From contig CAZBTU010000003.1 in the NCBI GenBank assembly GCA_964494905.1, positions 1 to 61,319 on the forward strand: 61,319 bases of DNA, given 5' to 3'. A program made the position numbers and the translations under genes. The notes under the pieces were generated by a model, which saw only the letters and a program-made list of their open reading frames with translations, had not been told where the DNA came from and made no database searches. This document shows positions 1,956 through 39,186 of this stretch, piece after piece (the first letter of the stretch is position 1; each line of letters starts with the position of its first letter). The DNA comes from an uncultured Pseudomonadales bacterium (GTDB taxonomy: Bacteria > Patescibacteriota > Microgenomatia > UBA1400 > PJMF01).

Positions 1956-1982
1956 ATTATTCATTTTTAATACTAAAAACTG

Positions 1983-2026
1983 TGGCGCGTATTTTGGCGC
2001 GTATGTGGCGCGAACTGTGATATACT
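1983..2026 (+). promoter_or_regulatory. Fic1 promoter/operator: three phased TGGCGCG direct repeats plus an extended -10
   Basis: TGGCGCG at 1983-1989, 1995-2001 and 2006-2012 (spacing 12 and 11 bp). TGaTATACT at 2018-2026. The ATG at 2034 is only 7 nt after the -10, so the transcript is near-leaderless. Confidence 0.55.
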
Positions 2027-2033
2027 CATTACT

Positions 2034-3086
2034 ATGTATACTCCAAAATTTACTATTACCTCTGAAATAACAAATCAAATAGCTGAGATTGAAGGTATTC
2101 GCACCATTGTAGATCAAAGCAATATTCTACCAGAGAAAGAAATAGCCCTACGATACAGAGCAACTGTAGAAGCAATACATAGCTCAACTACAATTGAAGG
2201 CAATCAACTAAACAAAAAACAAGTTGAGGCTGTACTTGCTGGAAAAGCTGTGGCACAAACTGAGTATGCCATTACTGAAGTAAAAAATTACAAAAATGCT
2301 CTTGACTGGCTACAAATTAGAAAACAAAACTCTAAACAAATCTCAATTGAAGATATCCTAAAAATACACGAGCTAACTATGGATGGACTTTTACCAAAAG
2401 AAAAAACTGGTCATTTGCGTCCGGGAGAAGTATATATTGTTGACATTATTAATAATGATGAGCAAGTTCGCTACCATGGTCCAAAATCTGAATTACTTCC
2501 TGATTTACTTTCAGATCTGTGTAAATGGCTGGAATTCGAAGCCAGTAAACTGCATCCAGTATTAGCTGCAAGCATCCTTCATTATGAATTTGTTTCAATA
2601 CATCCATTTAGCGATGGAAATGGTAGAGTTACTCGATTATTAACAATGCTCTACTTATCTCTGCGTCAATACGATTTTAGAGGAGTACTTGTCCCAGAGA
2701 TTTATTATCTTGATCATCGTATGCAATATTACAATGCTTTAAACCAAGAAAATGAATATAGTAAGCAAAGAAATGCAAATCTTACTCCATGGATTGAATT
2801 TTTCGTCAAAGGATTTTTAACTACAACCAAACACTTAAAAACAGAAATTACTATTGCTCAAGCAGTTAATCCCAAAAATGTAACCATTCGTCTGTCGCAA
2901 GAAGAAATACAGTTGCTCGACTTTGTGAAACAAATGGGTTCAATTTCGTTGGAAGAAACTTTAGAAATTCTACAAATTCCTAGAAGAACTGCTCAAAGAA
3001 GGCTGAGTGAATTAGTTGATAAAGGACTATTACGATTAAACAGCAGTGGTAAAAATACTAATTATATAGCGCATGTTCACAAGTAA
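2034..3086 (+). CDS. Fic family protein, class II (intramolecular inhibitory helix), with C-terminal winged-HTH-like domain
   Basis: Fic core motif HPFSDGNGRVTR (HxFx[D/E]GNGRxxR). Upstream inhibitory motif STTIEGN ([S/T]xxxE[G/N]). The C-terminal LSQEEIQLLDFVKQMGSISLEETLEILQIPRRTAQRRLSELVDKGLL looks like a wHTH. Confidence 0.88.
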   Translation: MYTPKFTITSEITNQIAEIEGIRTIVDQSNILPEKEIALRYRATVEAIHSSTTIEGNQLNKKQVEAVLAGKAVAQTEYAITEVKNYKNALDWLQIRKQNSKQISIEDILKIHELTMDGLLPKEKTGHLRPGEVYIVDIINNDEQVRYHGPKSELLPDLLSDLCKWLEFEASKLHPVLAASILHYEFVSIHPFSDGNGRVTRLLTMLYLSLRQYDFRGVLVPEIYYLDHRMQYYNALNQENEYSKQRNANLTPWIEFFVKGFLTTTKHLKTEITIAQAVNPKNVTIRLSQEEIQLLDFVKQMGSISLEETLEILQIPRRTAQRRLSELVDKGLLRLNSSGKNTNYIAHVHK

Positions 3087-3127
3087 AGCCAAGCTCTTTT
3101 AGTCGAGCATATGTCTTGAGGATACTG

Positions 3128-3168
3128 GCGAAAAATAGTTCCAACTGAGGGTGTGTGAACTCACAGCG
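3128..3168 (+). repeat. Island interspersed repeat, copy C
   Basis: GCGAAAAATAGTTCCAACTGAG + GGTGTGTGAA spacer + CTCACAGC. A degenerate left arm (ATGTCTTGAGGATACTG) lies at 3111-3127. Located in the convergent gap between Fic1 and the 1148-aa gene. Confidence 0.6.
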
Positions 3169-3224
3169 TTTTTCTCTAGAGTTTTTCACACCCTAAGTGC
3201 AACATTGAACTATTCTTACTTTTT

Positions 3225-3261
3225 TGGCACAATTTTTGGCGCGATTATGGCACAATATAGT
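3225..3261 (+). promoter_or_regulatory. Orphan Fic1-type operator/promoter-like element with no downstream ORF
   Basis: TGGCACA (3225-3231), TGGCGCG (3237-3243) and TGGCACA (3248-3254), with the same 12/11-bp phasing as the Fic1 operator. A TATAGT follows at 3256-3261. It points into the 3' end of the convergent 1148-aa gene. Confidence 0.4.
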
Positions 3262-3347
3262 TTGTATTTACTCAAAATGTAACTTTATAAAGTATTTGAA
3301 GATACAGTAATTTTGCTTTATACTGTGGCAAGACCGACAGGGAATAG

Positions 3348-6300
3348 CTAGTTCAATGCTTCAATATATTTATCAATTTGTTCCTTCATGAATGATGTGG
3401 CATTTGATTGATATGATTTTAATAAGTTAATTATTTCACTCGGTGAAATTATCTGTTGCCATTGATCACTTTTTGATTTATAACTTTCAATAAATTCATA
3501 AAAAAATGTAGGATTTTGAGTTACCTCTCTTATGAATATTCTGGCATCTCTCATTTCTCCTGAGTTAAGTAAGATCGGATTGGAAAGAATAAGCTCTTTG
3601 CGATATGTTGGTAAAATCAAAAAAAGATATTCAAATTGTTTTTCCGAAGCAATTGAAGCAAAGAAATTATTAGGTAGACCTGTTGAATTCACTATATCAA
3701 AAACATAGTGTTCACCATGTAGATCTTTTATCCCACTCAATACATTTAGGTAATCCTTAATCATAAAAGTTTCACCTGAATTCATAAAAGCATCTATTTG
3801 ATCAAAATTACTAACAATATTGGCTAGTGTTGTATAACCATAATCATCATAAATACCACGAAATATTTTATTGATTTGATCTTGATTAAGCTGCCCAAAG
3901 TATTCCTTACAAAGGGTAAAGTATGGGTCAGACTCATCTGCAAGATAAAGTTTTTGCAAGAATTCAGTTCGAAAAAGAGTAAACAGAATCAATTGCTTTG
4001 CCATGGGATCGATGACCATGAACTTATCCAAATATTCTGTATCAAGTTTATCTAAATCTCTGATCGCATCAGGGCTTACTGGCACAGTAAGATCAGAAAG
4101 GTTTGGACTAAGAAGAATAAATCGATTGAAGAGTGAACCACCCAGTTTAACATAGATAACGTTACCTGTATTGTCTTCAAATTCAACAACTTCACCGGTT
4201 ATCAATTTTTGTAGAAGTTCTCTGTATAGCACATTGTCATCAAATTCGACAACTTCGCCGGATATGAATTCCTGTGGTAATCGCGGATCAAATCCATACC
4301 AATTTGCATTTGTGTCAACCGCGATAAATCGTAATTGCGAACCTATTTCTCCACTTTTTGTTTCCGGTTTCGGTGCACCAGGTAGATCATCAATTATTTC
4401 ATCAAATACTGCAAGGTTACTCATTAAATAGTCCAATTGATCTCTGAGTTTTTTACTCCCATAAGGATCTCCTGAATATCCTTGATATATTCCAATATAA
4501 TCCTGAAGCAAGCCGCCAATACTCGCGGACGTAGGTGATACACCTGCTATAGCAAGCAGATTCATAATATGATACATCCCACCAGCTAGGTTAGCCGGAT
4601 CAAAGTTTTTCATTAGAAAATCTTTAGAAGGTATATCCCAGTATTTAGATTCTGGGAGCAGTAACGCTAGATCAGCCGCAGTAAATCCTTTTGAAAAAGG
4701 GTCTTCGATCATTGTCTGAGCCAGAAATCCGGAATCAGAATTATTTAATGAACCTATAGGAGTACCTATAAATGGGTTGTTTCTCGTAATCAGTTTTAAA
4801 GCGATAGTTACATCCCACATTGAGGAGTAGAGATCACCGTCATTTTTAACAAGCGCAAAGGCTAATATATCGGAGATAGGAACTTGGTTTTGTGTATGTT
4901 CATATTGTTGAAAAATAAAATTTTGATAATCAGAAAAATATAAAGTAATTTGTTCAATATTTAGCTGTTTAACTGTTGGGTGAAGCGAGTTATACAAAAC
5001 ACAAACGTCGTGGAAATTAGAAAAATTGCTACTGGATAGATGATAAACTTGTTGTAGTGATTCCGATGTTATTGACAAGAATAGAGGATCACTATTATTA
5101 TTTTTTGATAAAGTATAATCCGTGACAACATCATCTAATCCGACGTAGTCAGGATGAACTTGCCAGAAAACAGGCGAGGGGTCGTGATTATATTTTCTCG
5201 CCATTGTTTCATATGTTGAAAATGCATTCGTTAATAACACATCAATTGTTTGATAATTCAGGTTTTCTTTTTCTAATAATTCATATAGTGCTGTCTGCTT
5301 TTCTTCTGGGAATAATTCGATTTGTTCTCGTAACTGATCATCAAAATCTCTTTCTTTTTCCGTAAGGACAGTGATCGCAAACTCGAATAACTTTTTTGCA
5401 GACTCGGGATCACTTAAATCAGCATTTATCATCTGAATAAATTGTGGGTCTGTGAATATATCAATCAGTGCTTCACTAGGTAGTTTAGAGATAAGATTCA
5501 AGGTCTGATGTTCAAACAGTTCTAAAAATTGTGCTCCCATCTCTGTAGTAGTAAGCCACATTAGACCTTTTTGAATAATCATTTGTTCCTGATTATGGAA
5601 AAAATGTTCTACCGATTCACTCGCAGCCGAAACTATATCAGCTGCTGTCGGACCAAAAACTGAAAGTAAATATAATATATTCACTAAGATTAAATCTTTT
5701 TTTAAATCGGCAGCTCTATCACTATTTGTTGCAACTTGTTCAATTCTTGTACGGATTCTGTTTATCTCTCTTGGTATTTTTTGACCCTGTTGTTCCATGC
5801 AGACACACCACTGGACTATTTTTTGTGTCGGCGTAAGACTATCATCACTAAGCACCAAACTTGCAATTTTAGGCTTCAGTTCTTCAAGAGTTTTCAGGGA
5901 TCGTAAACGACTGACGTTGTCGCCATAGCTGTATGCACCTGATCTCTGATCTTCAAGCAATTGGCCATAAACAACAGCGTGTGAATGTTCTCGAGAACCC
6001 TGTGTAGTCCGTAATGTTTGAGTCAGTACACCCATGTGTTTAAGAGTTTTCTCAATTTCACTTTTACCTTTTTCTTTAAGTGTGTTTTCTAAACCAAAGA
6101 AATCATTTATTCTACCAAAAAATTTGGTTCTTCCAATACTTTCAGCAGCTAGTCCATCAAGCGCCATTGCTTTATTGAGGTTCCATTGTTTCAAAAAATC
6201 ATGATTAGCATCTTTTAAAAAAGAAGCTGCTGTATTCCACCAGGTTTTTGACTCAACTGCAAGAAAATCATAATAACTGATTTTATCGGTAAAACCATCT

Positions 6301-6794
6301 TCGCCTGATTCAAGTTTAAGAGTTAGGAAAACAAATTGCCGTAGTTTTTCAATTGAAGTTTGCTCTAGATCTATTTTCCCCAAACAATCTATAATTTGTT
6401 CTGCGTTTGTGAGCTGTTTTTCTACTAATGGACAAAGATCCGCAAATACTTCAATCATACTCATTCGCACATTTCGTTCTTTCGAATTGTTTGGCTGAAG
6501 AGAGGTGACAGAATCAAATGAATAGGGTTTGATGTATTTTAGAAAACGTTCTACCTTAACTGACAACGTTGTGCTAGGTTCTACAAGGATTTCATTTACC
6601 TTATCATCAAAATCATTTGAGCTTATCGTCGATGCATGAACTTTCTTAATGAAATCAGCTTCTTCTTTCAGTAAATGCAGTATTTTCTTTGAAGTTATTG
6701 CATTTATTTCTTCTAATAAACGCGTCTCAGTCAAGAGCTTCTTTCCAATTTCAAAATTCAAAGTATCAATATTTTCAACAGGTTTTTCGTTCAA
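3348..6794 (-). CDS. Large orphan protein (1148 aa), function unknown
   Basis: Uninterrupted 3.4-kb ORF in AT-rich DNA. Apparent TTG start; the next in-frame Met is about 105 codons in. No catalytic motif recognised. Internal duplicated segment SGEVVEFDDN / TGEVVEFEDN (29-nt DNA repeat at 4171-4199 and 4234-4262). Co-directional with the Fic gene 137 nt upstream. Confidence 0.75.
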   Translation of the reverse strand: MNEKPVENIDTLNFEIGKKLLTETRLLEEINAITSKKILHLLKEEADFIKKVHASTISSNDFDDKVNEILVEPSTTLSVKVERFLKYIKPYSFDSVTSLQPNNSKERNVRMSMIEVFADLCPLVEKQLTNAEQIIDCLGKIDLEQTSIEKLRQFVFLTLKLESGEDGFTDKISYYDFLAVESKTWWNTAASFLKDANHDFLKQWNLNKAMALDGLAAESIGRTKFFGRINDFFGLENTLKEKGKSEIEKTLKHMGVLTQTLRTTQGSREHSHAVVYGQLLEDQRSGAYSYGDNVSRLRSLKTLEELKPKIASLVLSDDSLTPTQKIVQWCVCMEQQGQKIPREINRIRTRIEQVATNSDRAADLKKDLILVNILYLLSVFGPTAADIVSAASESVEHFFHNQEQMIIQKGLMWLTTTEMGAQFLELFEHQTLNLISKLPSEALIDIFTDPQFIQMINADLSDPESAKKLFEFAITVLTEKERDFDDQLREQIELFPEEKQTALYELLEKENLNYQTIDVLLTNAFSTYETMARKYNHDPSPVFWQVHPDYVGLDDVVTDYTLSKNNNSDPLFLSITSESLQQVYHLSSSNFSNFHDVCVLYNSLHPTVKQLNIEQITLYFSDYQNFIFQQYEHTQNQVPISDILAFALVKNDGDLYSSMWDVTIALKLITRNNPFIGTPIGSLNNSDSGFLAQTMIEDPFSKGFTAADLALLLPESKYWDIPSKDFLMKNFDPANLAGGMYHIMNLLAIAGVSPTSASIGGLLQDYIGIYQGYSGDPYGSKKLRDQLDYLMSNLAVFDEIIDDLPGAPKPETKSGEIGSQLRFIAVDTNANWYGFDPRLPQEFISGEVVEFDDNVLYRELLQKLITGEVVEFEDNTGNVIYVKLGGSLFNRFILLSPNLSDLTVPVSPDAIRDLDKLDTEYLDKFMVIDPMAKQLILFTLFRTEFLQKLYLADESDPYFTLCKEYFGQLNQDQINKIFRGIYDDYGYTTLANIVSNFDQIDAFMNSGETFMIKDYLNVLSGIKDLHGEHYVFDIVNSTGLPNNFFASIASEKQFEYLFLILPTYRKELILSNPILLNSGEMRDARIFIREVTQNPTFFYEFIESYKSKSDQWQQIISPSEIINLLKSYQSNATSFMKEQIDKYIEALN

Positions 6795-6931: not shown

Positions 6932-7966
6932 TTACTTATCACTCAACACATAATAAGTAGACCGACCCTTACCCTCGCGTTTAATTAAACCTAATTCAAT
7001 CAATCTTTGAAAATCGAGTGTTCTGGTAGCCTTTGCCCTATCAGTCAACTTTGAATATGCTCTATCTGTAATAAAACCGTTTTGCTTTATATAATTAATT
7101 AATTTTAAATGATATGTCTCAATTTTAGTTTCAGGGGAATAACCAGTTTGCGGAATTATCTTTTTCACTCTGTGCAACTCATCAATGATACCTTCTGTAA
7201 AATACTCAAGCCAACTAGTGAAATCAATTGTTTCTCTCAATTCATTATAATCACCACATTCACCAACAGTCTGAAAATATTTTGTTACATTTTTATTGTA
7301 ATAGTTCTCAAAACTAAACAGATTAAATGTATTAAGTCCCATTTTTGCCAACAGAACTTTAGTCATTAATCTTGTGGTTCTACCATTCCCATCAATAAAA
7401 GGGTGGATAATAACCATTTGTTTATGAAAAATGCCTGCCAAAATCAAAGAATCCACAATATTTTTATTTCGGATAACAAATGTGGCAAGTTCTGTCATTA
7501 ATTTATTAACTTGATCATGATCAGGAGGTAAAAATACAACCTTGCCTGTTCTAGGATCATTAACAACTACAGGCTTTTTTCTCAGTCTACCTGACTCAAA
7601 ATCAGGTAACAAGCCGCCAATGACTTTTTTATGAACTGCTAAAATTAGATTTAAAGAAATAGATAAATCATCTTTTTTACTAAGATCATTCAAGTATTCA
7701 AGTGCCTCAATATAGTTAAGCACTTCTCGTTCACTATCACGAATGTATTCTGGTCTATTCTTTAATACTTTTTTAACTTCAGTTAAAGGTAATGGATTAC
7801 CCTCAATACTCGTAGATGCAAAGGCAGAAACTTCTCTTGCCTTTCTTTCAAAATCAATCAATACAACTTTGGGAAATCTTTGATTATTGAGTTCTTCGAC
7901 TAATAAAGCTATATACTTTATATTTGAAAGCAGCTTATTTGTAATCGTATACTTTGGCGTAAACAT
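6932..7966 (-). CDS. Fic family protein, class II, with C-terminal wHTH-like domain (paralog of 2034-3086)
   Basis: Fic motif HPFIDGNGRTTR. Inhibitory motif STSIEGN. N-terminus MFTPKYTITNKLL parallels MYTPKFTITSEIT of Fic1. C-terminal LKLINYIKQNGFITDRAYSKLTDRAKATRTLDFQRLIELGLI is HTH-like. Confidence 0.88.
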   Translation of the reverse strand: MFTPKYTITNKLLSNIKYIALLVEELNNQRFPKVVLIDFERKAREVSAFASTSIEGNPLPLTEVKKVLKNRPEYIRDSEREVLNYIEALEYLNDLSKKDDLSISLNLILAVHKKVIGGLLPDFESGRLRKKPVVVNDPRTGKVVFLPPDHDQVNKLMTELATFVIRNKNIVDSLILAGIFHKQMVIIHPFIDGNGRTTRLMTKVLLAKMGLNTFNLFSFENYYNKNVTKYFQTVGECGDYNELRETIDFTSWLEYFTEGIIDELHRVKKIIPQTGYSPETKIETYHLKLINYIKQNGFITDRAYSKLTDRAKATRTLDFQRLIELGLIKREGKGRSTYYVLSDK

Positions 7967-7968
7967 AT

Positions 7969-8004
7969 TAGTCTAATAATAGTCGATTATTAGTCGATTG
8001 TCAA
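7969..8004 (-). promoter_or_regulatory. Fic2 promoter/operator: TTGACA-17-TATTAT overlaid by three phased TAGTC(G/T)A repeats
   Basis: On the minus strand, TTGACA (8004-7999), a 17-nt spacer, then TATTAT (7981-7976). The ATG at 7966 is 9 nt after the -10. On the plus strand, TAGTCTA 7969-7975, TAGTCGA 7980-7986 and TAGTCGA 7991-7997 (11-bp phasing). Confidence 0.6.
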
Positions 8005-8035
8005 TACTCTGATTTTATGCTAAGTATAGTAAGAT

Positions 8036-8089
8036 GTAGCCTCTCGAGGTCTGCAAAAAATAGTTCCAACTGAGGGCGCGTGGGGTCAC
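8036..8089 (+). repeat. Island interspersed repeat, copy D (long form), at the right edge of the AT-rich island
   Basis: GTAGCCTCTCGAGGTCTGCAAAAAATAGTTCCAACTGAG + GGCGCGTGG spacer + GGTCAC. Coincides with the switch from about one-third GC to higher-GC DNA. Confidence 0.65.
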
Positions 8090-8156
8090 TCTATTGGAGT
8101 TTGTGAGAGTTGATTAGTCTTGCTACTTCTAATAGCAACCAATTTCATCAACTCGA

Positions 8157-8771
8157 TCAGAAGCAGTATGACAACATAATTTCCCTTGCTGTTAGTTTGT
8201 AAAAATTGAAAGCAGCTAGCATTTCGTTTGTGGCATTCTGACTCAGTCGATTTTCACTTCCAGCGATAAACTCAAGACGATCGTCTAACACTTTCGAGTT
8301 AGTTAATGACGATATCCGCCTTGTGACAGACCAAACAGTATCAATGAATGGCGGTAGCTTCATGCCTCTTCTAATCTCAACAAATTCTTCTTCCTCCACT
8401 TGTCTCCCCAACAAAGATGAGATGTATAGCTGCTCCACCCCAAAATCAGTATCGGCATCAAATTTAGTATTAAACACTTTTCGAATAGTAGGAATGATCT
8501 CCTCACTGACAGCTGTTAGAATTTCCTCGACACGTTCGGCTGTGGATACTTGCTTCCCAGTAACACGATCTGTATTGATGGGAAAAAGTGTCGGGACAGC
8601 GTCCTCAGTCAATTCAATGGGCGAGAGGGGCGGCTGCTTAATTGTTGAAAAAACATCGTCGATATCAGGTTGCTGCAAATGTTGTGCCTCAAATTCAAAT
8701 AGGTCCTTTTGCAATCGTGTTCTGTTTATATGTGAAGTGACTGATGCTAGTAACTCACGAGCCAGATGCAA
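8157..8771 (-). CDS. Hypothetical protein (204 aa)
   Basis: ORF co-directional with and 66 nt downstream of the PD-(D/E)xK-like gene. No motif recognised. Confidence 0.55.
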   Translation of the reverse strand: MHLARELLASVTSHINRTRLQKDLFEFEAQHLQQPDIDDVFSTIKQPPLSPIELTEDAVPTLFPINTDRVTGKQVSTAERVEEILTAVSEEIIPTIRKVFNTKFDADTDFGVEQLYISSLLGRQVEEEEFVEIRRGMKLPPFIDTVWSVTRRISSLTNSKVLDDRLEFIAGSENRLSQNATNEMLAAFNFYKLTAREIMLSYCF

Positions 8772-8837
8772 CTGTTCACTAAACTTCTTTTTTTGATCAG
8801 TTGTAGAACTGGGAGGATGTTCAATCTCAGCAATTTC

Positions 8838-9305
8838 TCAAGCGAATGATGCATAAATAAGCTTGTTTCTATAGATCCCGAATGATTCAGCACTTGCAAT
8901 CTTATCAACCTCAAAAGAAGAGTCTACATCAGGTTTCCTAATTTTAACTTCAACTATTGCGGCAACTTCGTATACATCTCCGACGTCTTTTACTACAATA
9001 AAATCAGGCGGATATATTTTTGCATTACTGAGTGAATGCGCCAGCAACTGATTATCAGGAACAGGCGACACATTGCGGATATCTTTCATCGCATGCAGGA
9101 TGAATTGCCCAAGCATCTCAGACTTAGTTCCGGCCCGAGTAAGTATGCCACGATGCTCGAGCATCATTTGTGCTAAATACTCACCAGCCAGACCGACGGC
9201 ATTTTCTAAAGTTTTAGGCCTTTCGAATCGATCAACGACAACTAAATCTGGCTGTAACGATGGACTTATATGCTTAATCTCATCAATCTGGTGTTCCTGA
9301 TTCAT
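8838..9305 (-). CDS. PD-(D/E)xK nuclease-fold-like small protein
   Basis: PPDFIVVKDVGDVYEVAAIVEVKIRK gives PD ... E-x-K in the usual order and spacing. Start refined to the ATG at 9305 (MNQEHQ), 6 nt after TGtTATACT (9320-9312, minus). The longer track ORF (to 9443) would run through that promoter. Confidence 0.45.
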   Translation of the reverse strand: MNQEHQIDEIKHISPSLQPDLVVVDRFERPKTLENAVGLAGEYLAQMMLEHRGILTRAGTKSEMLGQFILHAMKDIRNVSPVPDNQLLAHSLSNAKIYPPDFIVVKDVGDVYEVAAIVEVKIRKPDVDSSFEVDKIASAESFGIYRNKLIYASFA

Positions 9306-9365
9306 TTTGTAAGTATAACAAATATTCATATGATACTTGCATTGATGATATGATATAACCAACCT
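9306..9365. promoter_or_regulatory. Divergent near-leaderless promoter pair
   Basis: Minus strand: TGtTATACT at 9320-9312, 6 nt before the ATG at 9305. Plus strand: TGaTATAAC at 9351-9359, 6 nt before the ATG at 9366. Confidence 0.45.
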
Positions 9366-9863
9366 ATGAGAGAAAGTTTGTCTAGTTACTTCAAACAGCA
9401 TTTGAAGAAAGAAAATAAGATCGTTCAACATGAAATTCGGCAAATTTCAGATGAACAAGAACAGGTAATGATCGAACATATAGCCAAGATTTGCCCCCCC
9501 GATTTCCCAATCGGCAAAGGACTAAGAGGTGGCTTCGACCTTAAGATGGTTGCTCAGTATCAACCTGAGCAATGCGTCACAATCCTTGGTAAAGCTTTTG
9601 TAATTCCAAAAGCCGGAAAAGCGTCTCTACAAATTGAACAACAAGACACTCATAGAACAGATGGGAGAAAAGAGTACATCTTTGAAGTGACAGATCGCTC
9701 TGTCTTTGTTGCAAGCTCTGGTAGTGCTACAGAACTTGTAGTCATCACGGAGGTGCCTGAGGGCTTACCCTCTGATCCTTTTGCCAGAACCTATGTGTTT
9801 ATTACCAATGATGCATTGCGAACCATTCTGGAATCACACCAGAGCATCTCTTCAGTCATCTAA
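9366..9863 (+). CDS. Hypothetical protein (165 aa) sharing an AKI(C/Y)PPDF motif with the divergent neighbour
   Basis: IEHIAKICPPDF compared with LSNAKIYPPDF in 8838-9305. Nothing else recognisable. Confidence 0.55.
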   Translation: MRESLSSYFKQHLKKENKIVQHEIRQISDEQEQVMIEHIAKICPPDFPIGKGLRGGFDLKMVAQYQPEQCVTILGKAFVIPKAGKASLQIEQQDTHRTDGRKEYIFEVTDRSVFVASSGSATELVVITEVPEGLPSDPFARTYVFITNDALRTILESHQSISSVI

Positions 9864-9917
9864 CCTACCCTGATCCAAGCAGTTACTCTTGCAGAGTAAA
9901 TATGCTATAAGAAATGC

Positions 9918-12380
9918 ATGCATGAATTGACTAGAGTTAATGAAATTAACAAACCGGCAGAGTTACCACCAAAAATCTCCCAGGTAACAGAGAAACCCAT
10001 ACCTCAAGAACTTCAACCATACAAAATTAAATCCGTCACAGAAGTTGGCCTAGAAACCGGCACAACTAGTGTTGTTTGCCAACTCGACAACAAACATGCG
10101 TACAATGCCCAGAGCTTGGCTGCTATTCGAGATCAGTTGGACCAGAATCGAGTTGCGGTAATGTTAGATAACAACTTCAAGGACAAAACCAGTGCTAGCT
10201 GGGTAAAGATCTTCAAGACCGTCAATGGCATAAAAACACTGGTAGCGCGATTTGACCCTCAGAGCAATGTTCTCCATGTTGATCACCACCTCACGACAGC
10301 AGAAATTGGTGAGACACCTCTCAACCAAGAGCTCAACCCAGAATTGCCAGCGTCAACGACACCACTGGTTGTTGCTTTTTTTCGCGGGCTGAGTGAAGGG
10401 ACACTCTTTACCGAAGATGAAAACTTCCCTGGTTGCATTGAATCTCTCAACAACACTTGGGATGCTCACCAATTCATGGTGTTTGTAGATCATTTTGATC
10501 CAGACTCTACAGAGTCATCAATGGCAGTGCTGAAGGCTAGCAGGGACAATGTTAATCACCAGTACTTTGATGAATTGGCAGCAACCACCCTGGACGCCGA
10601 CCACCGCGGGACGTATAGAACTAAAGATGGAGCCTCAAATGCTCGCGAAAAACTGGTCAAGGTACTCTCAGAACTCAGTATCCTGAGTGTACCAAGAACG
10701 ATCAAAGCACTTCAGGTTCTTGAAAATATCACCGACCACAATCAGCTTGCTGAAGCCCTGATAGCCAACAACATGCCAGACGCTGCTCAGTTATATCTGA
10801 ACTTTGAAAAAATATTGCAGTCCACCGAAGCAGTTGCTGAGTCTATGGCGGCACACTACGATGGTCATGGGAACGTGGTCTATAACGTGTTGGCGGGTGA
10901 TACAGAGCTAGATATGGCATACTTGGCGAGTGCTCTCCAGGAGAAATATGGCAAAGAGATCGGTCCAGACGGCATTGAAGTTTGTTTGATAGTCAAAGAT
11001 TATGGCCAGGTTGATGCTAGTAATTTTCCTGATGTTCACGAGTACGGCGTCTGGGTAAGAACCCTGCATGAAGCAGTGGATCTCAATAAATCTGGAGCAT
11101 TGCTTGAACTACTTGGCATCTATGGCCGGAGCACAGCCCGAGGGAACCGAAATGCAATTTCACACGTTTCACAACATGGAGTGACCTTTACTATTACGGG
11201 TACGGCTGATCTACTTGCCGACCTTAATGCAGGGAGCAGGTGGCGCTCTAAAAACGCATGGGGACTGATTAAAACCCTTGAAATGATCTTCGACCGTGAC
11301 CCAGCTTCACACACTATAGAACAATATATTGGATCTCGACCCGATAGTGTGCGCAGGTCCAGAACAATACCGGGGACCAACCAAGAACGAGGCGTTGCGT
11401 TGGACACGATCAGTACGGGTGAGCGAAGTGGTGAACAACGCGTCATCAAGTACCTCATTTATCCACCGGGTGAATCCCCTAATCAGGAATTCATATCAGA
11501 AGTACATACTGCCGGAGTTGCTGCTGCACTCCTTTGGCGTGACGGGCGACAGTTGGTGCTCATCCCAGAAACAATCGGACTTCACATCAAACCAGGGTTC
11601 GTCGGAGCAGAGTTTGAACGTGTTCAGATGCTTAATGATCCCAAACTAAATGAGATGGGTATGCCAATCGTGGAAGACGGGCAACATCAGTTTGCTCAGG
11701 TAAGTGAGCACTCAGAAGCAATGCTAGCCCACTTAGATGACATGAGAAATGTTCCCATAGCTATTTTAGATGCAGGGAAAGTAAGGGTGGCAAGTGCAGC
11801 TGAGTACAAATCAGATGTAACAAACTTACTTGCTGATTTACCAATAGGTTTACTACCTCTGCAGCAGATAGAGATGATACAACAACTAGAGTTTCACTTT
11901 GATCAGAATGAGAGGGTCTTAGTAAATGGCCGCACAAAACCTGATAACATGTTTGTAAAAGTGGACCGAATTGGGCAAACTGACTGGCAGTCAATCAAGC
12001 AAGGACATAGATATGAAGATCAAGTGTCCCTCCTCAGTAGTTTTCTGTTGATGAACCCTGCAGAGATAAACCGATACGCCAGGGGGATGGATTTCAAGAA
12101 CCCTGATGTACAATTTCTATTTATCAGTCGGGCACTCTTTGCTTTGCAGTACAACATAGATAAAATAAAAAGACTTGAAGAAGAGAACAATTATAGTGAA
12201 GTGGAAATCACAAAACTGAAGGTGCGTATTCACCTTGAGATTGTCACATGGGCACTGTCTGATCAAAAAGATTTAAGCAGGTTGCAACAATTAAGTGGAG
12301 AATTACGCAAAAAGCTGCAGGAACATAGACCAAGCACTGCACATCAAGCGAATCAGATGTTCGGTACTTCTGTTGGTTGA
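9918..12380 (+). CDS. Large hypothetical protein (820 aa) with a degenerate DHH/DHHA1-like N-terminal region and a C-terminal coiled coil
   Basis: LHVDHHL (nt 10281-10289), followed by ELPASTTPLVVAFF, resembles DHH motif III and its following helix. VWVRTLHEAVDLNKSGALLELLGIYGRSTARGNRNAIS resembles the DHHA1 ...GGGGHxNAAG segment, but the GGGH is replaced. Resemblance is by eye only. Confidence 0.6.
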   Translation: MHELTRVNEINKPAELPPKISQVTEKPIPQELQPYKIKSVTEVGLETGTTSVVCQLDNKHAYNAQSLAAIRDQLDQNRVAVMLDNNFKDKTSASWVKIFKTVNGIKTLVARFDPQSNVLHVDHHLTTAEIGETPLNQELNPELPASTTPLVVAFFRGLSEGTLFTEDENFPGCIESLNNTWDAHQFMVFVDHFDPDSTESSMAVLKASRDNVNHQYFDELAATTLDADHRGTYRTKDGASNAREKLVKVLSELSILSVPRTIKALQVLENITDHNQLAEALIANNMPDAAQLYLNFEKILQSTEAVAESMAAHYDGHGNVVYNVLAGDTELDMAYLASALQEKYGKEIGPDGIEVCLIVKDYGQVDASNFPDVHEYGVWVRTLHEAVDLNKSGALLELLGIYGRSTARGNRNAISHVSQHGVTFTITGTADLLADLNAGSRWRSKNAWGLIKTLEMIFDRDPASHTIEQYIGSRPDSVRRSRTIPGTNQERGVALDTISTGERSGEQRVIKYLIYPPGESPNQEFISEVHTAGVAAALLWRDGRQLVLIPETIGLHIKPGFVGAEFERVQMLNDPKLNEMGMPIVEDGQHQFAQVSEHSEAMLAHLDDMRNVPIAILDAGKVRVASAAEYKSDVTNLLADLPIGLLPLQQIEMIQQLEFHFDQNERVLVNGRTKPDNMFVKVDRIGQTDWQSIKQGHRYEDQVSLLSSFLLMNPAEINRYARGMDFKNPDVQFLFISRALFALQYNIDKIKRLEEENNYSEVEITKLKVRIHLEIVTWALSDQKDLSRLQQLSGELRKKLQEHRPSTAHQANQMFGTSVG

Positions 12381-38289: not shown

Positions 38290-39186
38290 ATGCCCATCAA
38301 ACATGTACTCAAGGGTGAGCGTATGGCAGTTACTGCTCACCGACACCCAAGCTCCATAGCCGATTTGAACCAAGTTGCTCTTCGCATCAGGAGGCTCATC
38401 ATTCGCATGCTGCTCAAAGCAGGGAGTGGGCATAGTGCTGGCCCGTTAGGAATGGCTGATGTATTCACGGCACTGTACTTTGCAGTTCTCCGGCACCGTC
38501 CCAACCAACCACAGTGGGACGGCCGTGATCGGGTCATTCTTTCCAATGGTCACATCTGCCCTGTGCTCTATGCAACCCTTGCCGAAGCAGGTTACTTTCC
38601 AAAAAAAGAAGTGCTGACACTGCGAGCATTTCAATCTCGTTTGCAAGGTCATCCTCACTTGGGATCACTACCAGGAGTTGAAAACACTTCTGGGCCACTC
38701 GGCCAAGGTCTTTCCCAGGCAGCTGGACTTGCGCTTGGCCTGCGAATCGATAATAAAAAAAACCGGGTGTACTGCTTACTCAGTGACGGTGAACATCAGG
38801 AGGGACAAACTTGGGAGGCTTATATGTTCGCAGCGGCCAACCGACTCACGAACTTAACTGTCTTAATTGACCGTAATAACATCCAAATTGATGGATACAC
38901 TGAGGACATTATGCCCCTACATCCTCTGGAGAAAAAAATCGAGAGCTTCGGCTGGCAAGTATTTGAAGTTGATGGTCATAACATCCAAGCGGTCATCGAT
39001 ACAGTTCACCAGGCACATGCAATCCAAGAGCAACCTACAGCCATCATCTGCAACACTATTCCCGGAAAGGGTGTGAGCTTTATGGAAAACAACTATGTTT
39101 GGCACGGAAAGCCTCCTCATTCCGATGAGGCAAAACGCGCACTCAGAGAATTGCGAAGCTTGCAAGGAAGTATATGGTGGGAGTAA
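38290..39186 (+). CDS. Transketolase, N-terminal (TPP-binding) subunit
   Basis: GHSAGPLGMADV, SNGH and LLSDGEHQEGQTWEA (TPP-binding GDG-like motif). Split-gene form. An alternative ATG lies at 38323. Confidence 0.85.
   Translation: MPIKHVLKGERMAVTAHRHPSSIADLNQVALRIRRLIIRMLLKAGSGHSAGPLGMADVFTALYFAVLRHRPNQPQWDGRDRVILSNGHICPVLYATLAEAGYFPKKEVLTLRAFQSRLQGHPHLGSLPGVENTSGPLGQGLSQAAGLALGLRIDNKKNRVYCLLSDGEHQEGQTWEAYMFAAANRLTNLTVLIDRNNIQIDGYTEDIMPLHPLEKKIESFGWQVFEVDGHNIQAVIDTVHQAHAIQEQPTAIICNTIPGKGVSFMENNYVWHGKPPHSDEAKRALRELRSLQGSIWWE

Follow-up and report, generated by a model that had tools for sequence, protein, structure and literature searches.

The window analysed here is a stretch of 61,319 nucleotides (contig CAZBTU010000003.1 of assembly GCA_964494905.1) from an uncultured bacterium that is placed in the Patescibacteriota. 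Close to its start lies a gene for a Fic enzyme, here called Fic1, which is preceded by three copies of the heptamer TGGCGCG spaced about one helical turn apart. These repeats, the promoter that they adjoin and their counterparts at other Fic genes are described below, together with the part that they may play in the control of the gene.

The Fic1 gene and its upstream repeats

The Fic1 gene (2034–3086, + strand) encodes a class II Fic enzyme of 350 amino acids, it matches the Pfam Fic domain with an E-value of 9.4e-19. The Fic core motif HxFx(D/E)GNGRxxR is present as HPFSDGNGRVTR at residues 190–201. The class II inhibitory motif (S/T)xxxE(G/N) is present as STTIEGN at residues 51–57, N-terminal to the Fic core. 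Residues H190, P191, F192, D194, N196, G197, R198 and R201 of the first motif are invariant in the alignment of Fic homologues, as are S51, T52, I54, E55, G56 and N57 of the second.

The C-terminus of Fic1 forms a domain of the winged helix-turn-helix (wHTH) type, which spans residues 289–346 (codons 2898–3071, + strand). In the AlphaFold2 model of the monomer, which has a mean pLDDT of 89.6, this region comprises a helix (289–301), a strand (303–305), two further helices (306–313 and 317–329) and a two-stranded wing (333–346). The helix at 317–329, RRTAQRRLSELVD (codons 2982–3020, + strand), is the predicted recognition helix; among its residues, R317 varies together with base 6 of the repeat unit and R322 with base 2, as described below. 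A phmmer search against the PDB aligns residues 145–344 with SoFic (3EQX, E 4e-14), and this alignment includes the wHTH. Foldseek finds matches over the full length of the protein to Dde_2494 (4RGL), CbFic2 (8CIL), SoFic (3EQX, 3ZEC) and CccR (7XUX), with a probability of 1.00 for 3EQX, 7XUX and 8CIL; the high root-mean-square deviations in these matches reflect differing orientations of the domains. The wHTH-like C-terminal domain that had been proposed from the sequence alone is therefore borne out by a confident model and by sequence and fold matches that run through the C-terminus. Fic1 belongs by sequence and fold to the group that includes SoFic, CccR and CbFic2, and the functional trait of this group, binding of the wHTH to the protein's own promoter, is predicted for Fic1 from the conservation of the repeat with the gene and from its covariation with the recognition helix.

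There is no separate antitoxin gene beside Fic1, as the + strand has no open reading frame (ORF) of at least 40 amino acids between 1932 and 2034 and none that overlaps the end of Fic1. No conserved partner gene was found among the neighbours of the Fic homologues.

The three repeat units are exact copies of TGGCGCG on the + strand. Unit 1 occupies 1983–1989, which corresponds to about -51 to -45 for a transcript that begins at the ATG. Unit 2 (1995–2001) begins 12 bp after unit 1, and unit 3 (2006–2012) begins 11 bp after unit 2. Five nucleotides (aactg) separate unit 3 from the TG of an extended -10 element, TGaTATACT (TGATATACT, 2018–2026, + strand), in which the TG lies at 2018–2019 and the hexamer TATACT at 2021–2026. 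Another seven nucleotides (cattact) lead from the end of the -10 element to the ATG at 2034. The sequence-only reading had placed the heptamers, their spacing, both gaps and the extended -10 in this way, and all of these coordinates are correct. No -35 hexamer is found 16–18 bp from the -10 element, and the repeat search found no inverted repeat whose arms lie in the promoter or close to it.

The same reading had called GC-rich heptamers conspicuous in such DNA. The G+C content around Fic1 is indeed 0.32–0.33, and the phased triple does stand out, but the heptamer by itself is not enriched: the window contains six copies where 3.0 are expected, and 12 of 100 shuffles contain at least as many as the window. 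The array before Fic1 is the only exact triple of any 7-mer with 10–12 bp spacing in the 61 kb. In first-order Markov simulations such triples occur at a mean of 0.005 per window, and only one of 200 simulated windows had any. When one mismatch in total is allowed, just three sites are found in the window (1981–2012, 3222–3254 and 7966–7997), each of which is tied to a Fic gene or to the remnant of a Fic promoter.

An extended -10 element (TGnTAtAaT) is present at nearly all homologous loci, where it ends 6–7 nt before the ATG, and no Shine-Dalgarno sequence is found at the Fic loci. Because of this fixed distance and the lack of a Shine-Dalgarno sequence, the Fic1 mRNA is very probably leaderless, starting at or beside the ATG. 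Three or four further genes of the window likewise start 4–7 nt after an extended -10 (TGnTAnAnT), at 38290 (+), 9305 (-), 43039 (+) and 20392 (-). The recurrence of this layout suggests a wider use of leaderless transcripts in the host genome.

A second Fic gene in the window, Fic2 (6932–7966, - strand), serves as a control. It encodes 344 amino acids with the same domain layout, is 26% identical to Fic1 and has the recognition helix RAKATRTLDFQRL. Its own putative operator is the triple TCGACTA / TCGACTA / TAGACTA (7969–7997, - strand), which has a spacing of 11/11 and ends 2 nt before the ATG. The predicted promoter TTGACA-17-TATTAT (7976–8004, - strand) has 11 of 12 consensus matches, the best in the first 9 kb, and is wholly overlaid by the repeats. 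Four Fic2 orthologues (L167, L169, L170 and L171; 68–83% identity) have three copies of ATCGNCTA at the corresponding place, and in this clade the units cover the -35, the -10 and the start. The two paralogues of one genome thus have different recognition helices and different triple repeats.

Repeats and recognition helices across Fic loci

The comparison was extended to a further 160 loci, which came from scanning metagenome contigs and GTDB genomes, one for each species. The repeat element is kept with Fic homologues of 33–88% identity in unrelated gene contexts, both in Patescibacteria and in other phyla. The closest homologues, at L001 (88% identity), L003 (71%) and L004 (68%), have unrelated neighbour genes and an identical upstream layout, TGGCGCG N5 TGGCGCG N4 TGGCGC(G/A) N4-5 TG(A/G)TATACT N6-7 ATG. 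The spacers differ among these three loci and the heptamers hold.

The upstream regions were surveyed at 102 loci, drawn from GTDB genome contigs, metagenome contigs and look-ups of the encoding contigs. Where the element is present, two to four direct repeats precede the Fic gene, with a period of 11–12 bp that is mostly 12 and then 11; the spacings seen in triples are 12/11, 11/12 and 12/12. A strict triple lies within 90 nt upstream of the Fic start in 58 of the 102 loci, against a background of at most 0.011 per 90 nt, an upper bound taken from the density elsewhere in the same loci. The layout is found in Patescibacteria (Microgenomates, Gottesman-, Davies- and Woesebacteria, Saccharibacteria and others) and also in some bins of Omnitrophota, Planctomycetia, Clostridiales and Coriobacteriales. 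At L007, L008, L012, L027 and L042 the TG of the extended -10 is also the end of the last unit. At two loci, L091 (391–547) and L092 (1345–1501), the 3' end of a tRNA-Ser gene is separated from the Fic ATG by 67 nt, and this gap holds the whole operator-promoter module, an arrangement consistent with insertion of the Fic module beside a tRNA gene.

The sequence of the unit varies between clades. The window's clade has TGGCGCG, and TGGCG(G/T)G, TGGCACG, TGTCGCA, TGGCGCA, TTGCGCG, TTTCGCG and GGTTGTCAT are found in others. Among 69 non-redundant proteins, the distance between operators is correlated with the distance between the H2-H3-wing regions when Fic-domain distance is controlled for (partial Mantel r 0.44, p 5e-4). 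Run the other way round, the test has r 0.06, and r is -0.04 for the adjacent linker region.

Individual residues and bases also pair. In the CPR-type (candidate phyla radiation) subfamily, represented by 66 loci, R or H at residue 322 goes with G at base 2 of the unit (130:5), whereas L, S, A, D, F or G at this residue goes with T (62:4); R or K at residue 317 goes with C at base 6 (111:8) and E, Y or D with G or T (12:4), counts that are inflated by shared ancestry, as the loci are not phylogenetically independent, so that p-values are too small. In the sister subfamily six helix signatures pair one-to-one with six repeat cores: SRQAAHKE with GGTTGACGCA, (S/T)RQAxLKE with GGTTGTCATTT, SDRAALKE with GGTTCGGGATTA, SDEGALKE with GGTTGGCGATTA, SNRxAxDE with (G)TTCAYGATTA, and SAQAxHKE with GGTTGATGATTA. 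Fine-grained covariation inside the TGGCGCG/TTGCGCG subset was also considered; there the partial Mantel signal is weak and not specific to the helix-turn-helix (HTH), and the counts by residue and base are the more informative.

This pairing of helix and repeat is what a direct protein-DNA readout would predict. In the contexts examined there is no conserved regulator gene next to the Fic genes, so the simplest candidate for the binder is the Fic protein's own wHTH. We consider it quite likely that the repeats upstream of Fic1 are bound by Fic1 itself.

The triple is not confined to promoters. Sufficient flanking DNA was available for 151 distinct family members, of which 71 have the triple upstream only, 39 downstream only and 11 at both ends, while 30 have none under the criteria applied. 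A cognate triple thus lies near the gene's own stop codon in 50 of the 151 Fic-wHTH genes, nearly always -12 to +24 nt from the stop, and these downstream arrays carry the core that matches the helix of the Fic protein. They are found at L068, L072–L079, L083–L086 and L142–L166, and in CPR lineages at L019/L111, L026, L027, L030, L032, L035, L039, L055, L101, L116, L117 and L129. The genes that follow are unrelated (argininosuccinate-lyase-like, SNase-domain, HsdR, AlbA_2), and at some loci there is none on that strand. Since about a third of the family has a triple after the stop codon, DNA binding may extend beyond autoregulation, which is probably not its whole function in the Fic-wHTH family.

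Some Fic-wHTH genes of the downstream type lie inside type I restriction-modification operons. L072 (716–5032) has the order HsdS-Fic-HsdR, with up to six repeat units before hsdR, and an HsdM-Fic arrangement is present in L160 (210–3738) and L077 (224–3041). With these units upstream of hsdR, the Fic protein of L072 might control the expression of the restriction subunit.

The low-GC cassettes

The first 8 kb of the window have a G+C content of 32–37%, compared with 41–48% for the rest. A direct repeat of about 70 nt, TATATAAGACGTAG..CTAAAAATGGTTCAAACTG..TTAGGGTCACA, bounds gene-sized cassettes in this region. Its copies lie on the + strand at 1–56, 1065–1125, 1922–1954 (degenerate), 3110–3165 and 8030–8090. 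Most of the cassettes consist of one gene, in either orientation; they contain an APH(6)-like kinase, a 261-amino-acid ORF, Fic1, and a 1148-amino-acid ORF together with Fic2. The first of these is an aminoglycoside/hydroxyurea-kinase-like gene (83–1000, - strand; APH_6_hur, E 3.5e-31). Neither the 261-amino-acid ORF (1147–1932, + strand) nor the 1148-amino-acid ORF (3348–6794, - strand) has a Pfam match.

The repeat of about 70 nt is also present in L094 (four copies in 4 kb), L167 (two) and L013 (one), where it flanks Fic and other genes. It has no Rfam match, and the ORFs at 8157–12380 include no integrase domain. Integron attC sites were considered as an explanation and rejected, as RNAalifold finds no consensus pairs in nine copies and the single-strand DNA folds are no better than those of shuffles on either strand. 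The repeat may be the recombination site of a cassette system that has not been described before.

A degenerate operator without a gene, TGGCACA / TGGCGCG / TGGCACA with a spacing of 12/11, lies at 3225–3254 (+ strand), 139 nt after the Fic1 stop. It is followed by a decayed -10 and then by ATG-TAA. The region 3110–3260 aligns with the DNA upstream of an intact Fic gene on L094, a metagenome contig of 1.19 Mb. The stretch 3166–3347, with its conserved leader, degenerate operator, decayed -10 and ATG-TAA, resembles the 5' part of a third Fic cassette, and on this alignment 3225–3254 is probably a remnant of that cassette's 5' end from which the coding part has been lost. The orphan array could alternatively be a downstream site of Fic1. 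This is disfavoured by the homology to the whole region upstream of the L094 gene, and the two readings do not exclude each other.

Proposed autoregulation of Fic1 and other explanations

Of the relatives of Fic1, CccR of Yersinia pseudotuberculosis is the one with a defined operator. It is, like Fic1, a class II Fic protein with a C-terminal HTH domain, and the folds match over the full length (7XUX) at a sequence identity of about 20%. CccR represses its own promoter through the HTH domain, as established by electrophoretic mobility shift assay, DNase footprinting and a lacZ fusion; the HTH half alone shifts DNA, and the footprint defines AGATAATCAT-N26-ATGATAATCT near the -35 and -10 (PMC9755527). 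Its operator consists of two 10-bp inverted repeats 26 bp apart, bound by a back-to-back dimer, whereas Fic1 has three 7-bp direct repeats with a period of 11–12 bp. No operator of the CccR type, with two inverted 10-bp half-sites about 26 bp apart, is present at Fic1. CccR is an effector of a type VI secretion system, while nothing hints at secretion of Fic1.

SoFic of Shewanella oneidensis (MloA, SO_4266, 3EQX) has the same domain order as Fic1. The SoFic dimer binds the 100 bp directly upstream of its own start codon and does not bind a random fragment of matched composition; the preprint names no motif or operator, and regulation was not tested in it (bioRxiv 10.64898/2026.07.09.737422). 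By our own reading of its Table S2, the best-bound fragment contains three forward copies of ATGTCGAT, 39–40 bp apart, and an inverted copy that abuts the middle one. With this distance and one inverted pair, these copies are not a phased triple like that at Fic1. Downstream of the L086 Fic gene the core of ATGTCGAT forms a triple with a 12-bp period, and in reverse orientation it is also found in the units of Fic2 in the window.

CbFic2 of Coxiella burnetii resembles Fic1 in joining a Fic domain to a wHTH (8CIL) and provides a precedent for DNA as an effector of the enzyme. DNA binding by its wHTH leads to dimerisation and to a switch from AMPylase to deAMPylase (PMC10628234). Unlike Fic1 it is a secreted effector that acts on histone H3, and no sequence-specific site or promoter role has been described for it.

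Head-to-tail, cooperative binding to direct repeats one helical turn apart is known in other small proteins with a helix-turn-helix, winged or not. It is described for phage 186 Apl, recombination directionality factors of the RdfS type and BldC; the domain is a wHTH in the recombination directionality factors and MerR-like in BldC, and some of these proteins double as transcriptional regulators. The lambda Xis sites X1-X1.5-X2 are an example of such head-to-tail binding to direct repeats. Proteins of the Xis, Apl and RdfS types are small, stand-alone proteins that act at att sites, whereas the wHTH of Fic1 forms part of an enzyme, with no recombinase in its vicinity. In pho boxes, which are bound by PhoB of the PhoB/OmpR family, 7-bp direct repeats with 4-bp A/T-rich spacers give a period of 11 bp, replace the -35 and place the winged helices head-to-tail. 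The PhoB/OmpR proteins are response regulators with a receiver domain that activate transcription, and apart from the wHTH fold they are unrelated to Fic1.

Phd-Doc and FicT-FicA are similar to the module proposed for Fic1 in that an enzyme of the Fic/Doc fold is held down by promoter autoregulation. In these systems a separate antitoxin provides the DNA binding and the inhibitory helix, in Fic1 both are present in one polypeptide. A search of open-access papers and bioRxiv found no published account of phased direct repeats at Fic genes or after their stop codons, nor one of leaderless promoters in Patescibacteria that bears on the Fic repeats. The site architecture is new, with three head-to-tail units that are unlike the one defined operator of the group, that of CccR.

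We hypothesise that Fic1 represses its own transcription. As the direct repeats follow each other at intervals of roughly a helical turn, the wHTH domains of Fic1 would sit on them head-to-tail on one face of the DNA, presumably with cooperativity. Bound Fic1 would cover about -51 to -22 of a leaderless promoter that has an extended -10 and lacks a -35. Its occupancy would most likely hinder RNA polymerase and lower transcription, and such negative feedback would keep a potentially toxic AMPylating enzyme scarce. The sequence-only reading had also proposed that the Fic protein autoregulates its own promoter, and the conservation of the module, the covariation with the helix, the separate triple of Fic2 and the precedents of CccR and SoFic speak for this. 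Repression is favoured as the sign of regulation because in several lineages the TG of the -10 also forms the end of the last unit, because the units of the Fic2 clade cover the whole promoter, and because CccR is a repressor. Negative autoregulation of Fic1 through its wHTH and the upstream triple appears moderately likely to us.

Several points weigh against this hypothesis. The solved relatives are symmetric dimers, which are not expected to prefer three direct repeats, so a different binding mode would be required. The units in the window stop 5 nt short of the extended -10, a position where activators of the PhoB type sit. The counts of paired residues and bases, and the Mantel p-values with them, are inflated by shared ancestry, and within the TGGCGCG/TTGCGCG subset the HTH-specific signal is weak (partial Mantel r 0.16 vs 0.13). 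With 39 of 151 members having a downstream triple only and 30 having none, promoter control cannot be what the DNA contact does throughout the family.

The arrays after the stop codon lead to a different proposal. It is conceivable, if unlikely, that the triple is more than an operator and acts as a cis-acting DNA partner of the enzyme, which docks a head-to-tail oligomer and sets its AMPylase/deAMPylase state. If so, the array would in effect serve as a tether or DNA 'antitoxin' whose helix-to-base code is simple and readable, and loss or titration of the site would free active enzyme. It would lie either at the promoter or within about 20 nt past the stop, where the nascent C-terminal wHTH emerges. 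In the stronger form of this proposal the repeats would be mainly a cofactor or tether that sets the oligomeric state of Fic and hence the balance of the two activities, and promoter control would be a secondary gain of the CPR lineages. The 50 members with a cognate triple at the stop and unrelated or no downstream genes are in its favour, as are the 11 with the same repeat at both gene ends, the DNA-induced dimerisation and activity switch of CbFic2 (PMC10628234) and the dependence of SoFic AMPylation on dimerisation (bioRxiv 10.64898/2026.07.09.737422). Fic1 and its close relatives have their intact site at the promoter, however, and the window's downstream copy is apparently left over from another cassette; nor has sequence specificity been shown for the DNA effect on CbFic2 (PMC10628234). 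We regard this form as unlikely; it and autoregulation could both hold.

The main rival to repression, as regards the sign of regulation, is activation in the manner of PhoB. In such positive autoregulation Fic1 at -51 to -22 would replace the missing -35 and recruit RNA polymerase. The promoter does lack a -35 hexamer, its units end 5 nt before the extended -10 and not over it, and the arrangement of its direct repeats, with a period of 11 bp around the -35 position, resembles that of a pho box, as established for PhoB. An extended -10, however, requires neither a -35 nor an activator. In other lineages the last unit reaches into the TG of the -10, and the Fic2-clade units over -35, -10 and start fit occlusion. 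CccR, the one relative that has been tested, is a repressor, and positive feedback on a toxin-like enzyme is difficult to rationalise. Activation is therefore rather improbable.

Control of Fic by another host regulator that binds the repeats would be the default reading, and nothing specific speaks for it. The element accompanies the gene through different phyla and contexts in which no regulator is conserved nearby, its sequence tracks the recognition helix of Fic itself, and two paralogues in one genome have different repeats, all of which makes such a regulator very improbable.

Units 2 and 3 could also be read as a sigma-54 promoter, with GG at 1996–1997 and GC at 2008–2009. The GG-N10-GC spacing is present in the window, and again in the orphan copy at 3237–3254. 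The -12 element is GTGGC, however, and not the TTGCW of the consensus TGGCAC-N5-TTGCW. Homologous units without GG or GC at these places (TGTCGCA, TTTCGCG, GGTTGTCAT and TCGACTA) keep the layout, the homologous promoters keep an extended -10 of the sigma-70 type at a fixed distance from the ATG, and a third identical unit would have no role. We find a sigma-54 promoter hardly credible here. Chance, or a hairpin or RNA structural element, can be neglected, for although GCGC and CGCG are self-complementary, only about 0.005 phased exact triples are expected per window, the region folds no better than shuffles on either strand (z 0.26 and -0.11) and has no Rfam match, and the element is conserved as a repeat and not as pairs.

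Contact of DNA-binding Fic enzymes with their own promoters has become known only recently, through one footprinted operator (CccR) and one bound promoter fragment (SoFic). The more than 100 relatives gathered here offer a more regular site, with three head-to-tail units per gene. Their natural specificity variants pair residues of the helix with bases of the unit, so that binding mode, stoichiometry and specificity can be tested with oligonucleotides and single substitutions. The arrays after the stop codon, including those in type I restriction-modification operons, raise the further possibility that DNA regulates the enzyme and not only the reverse. The findings suggest that Patescibacteria, with their small genomes, control a potentially toxic enzyme that targets translation or division by a feedback module of a single gene with a leaderless promoter.

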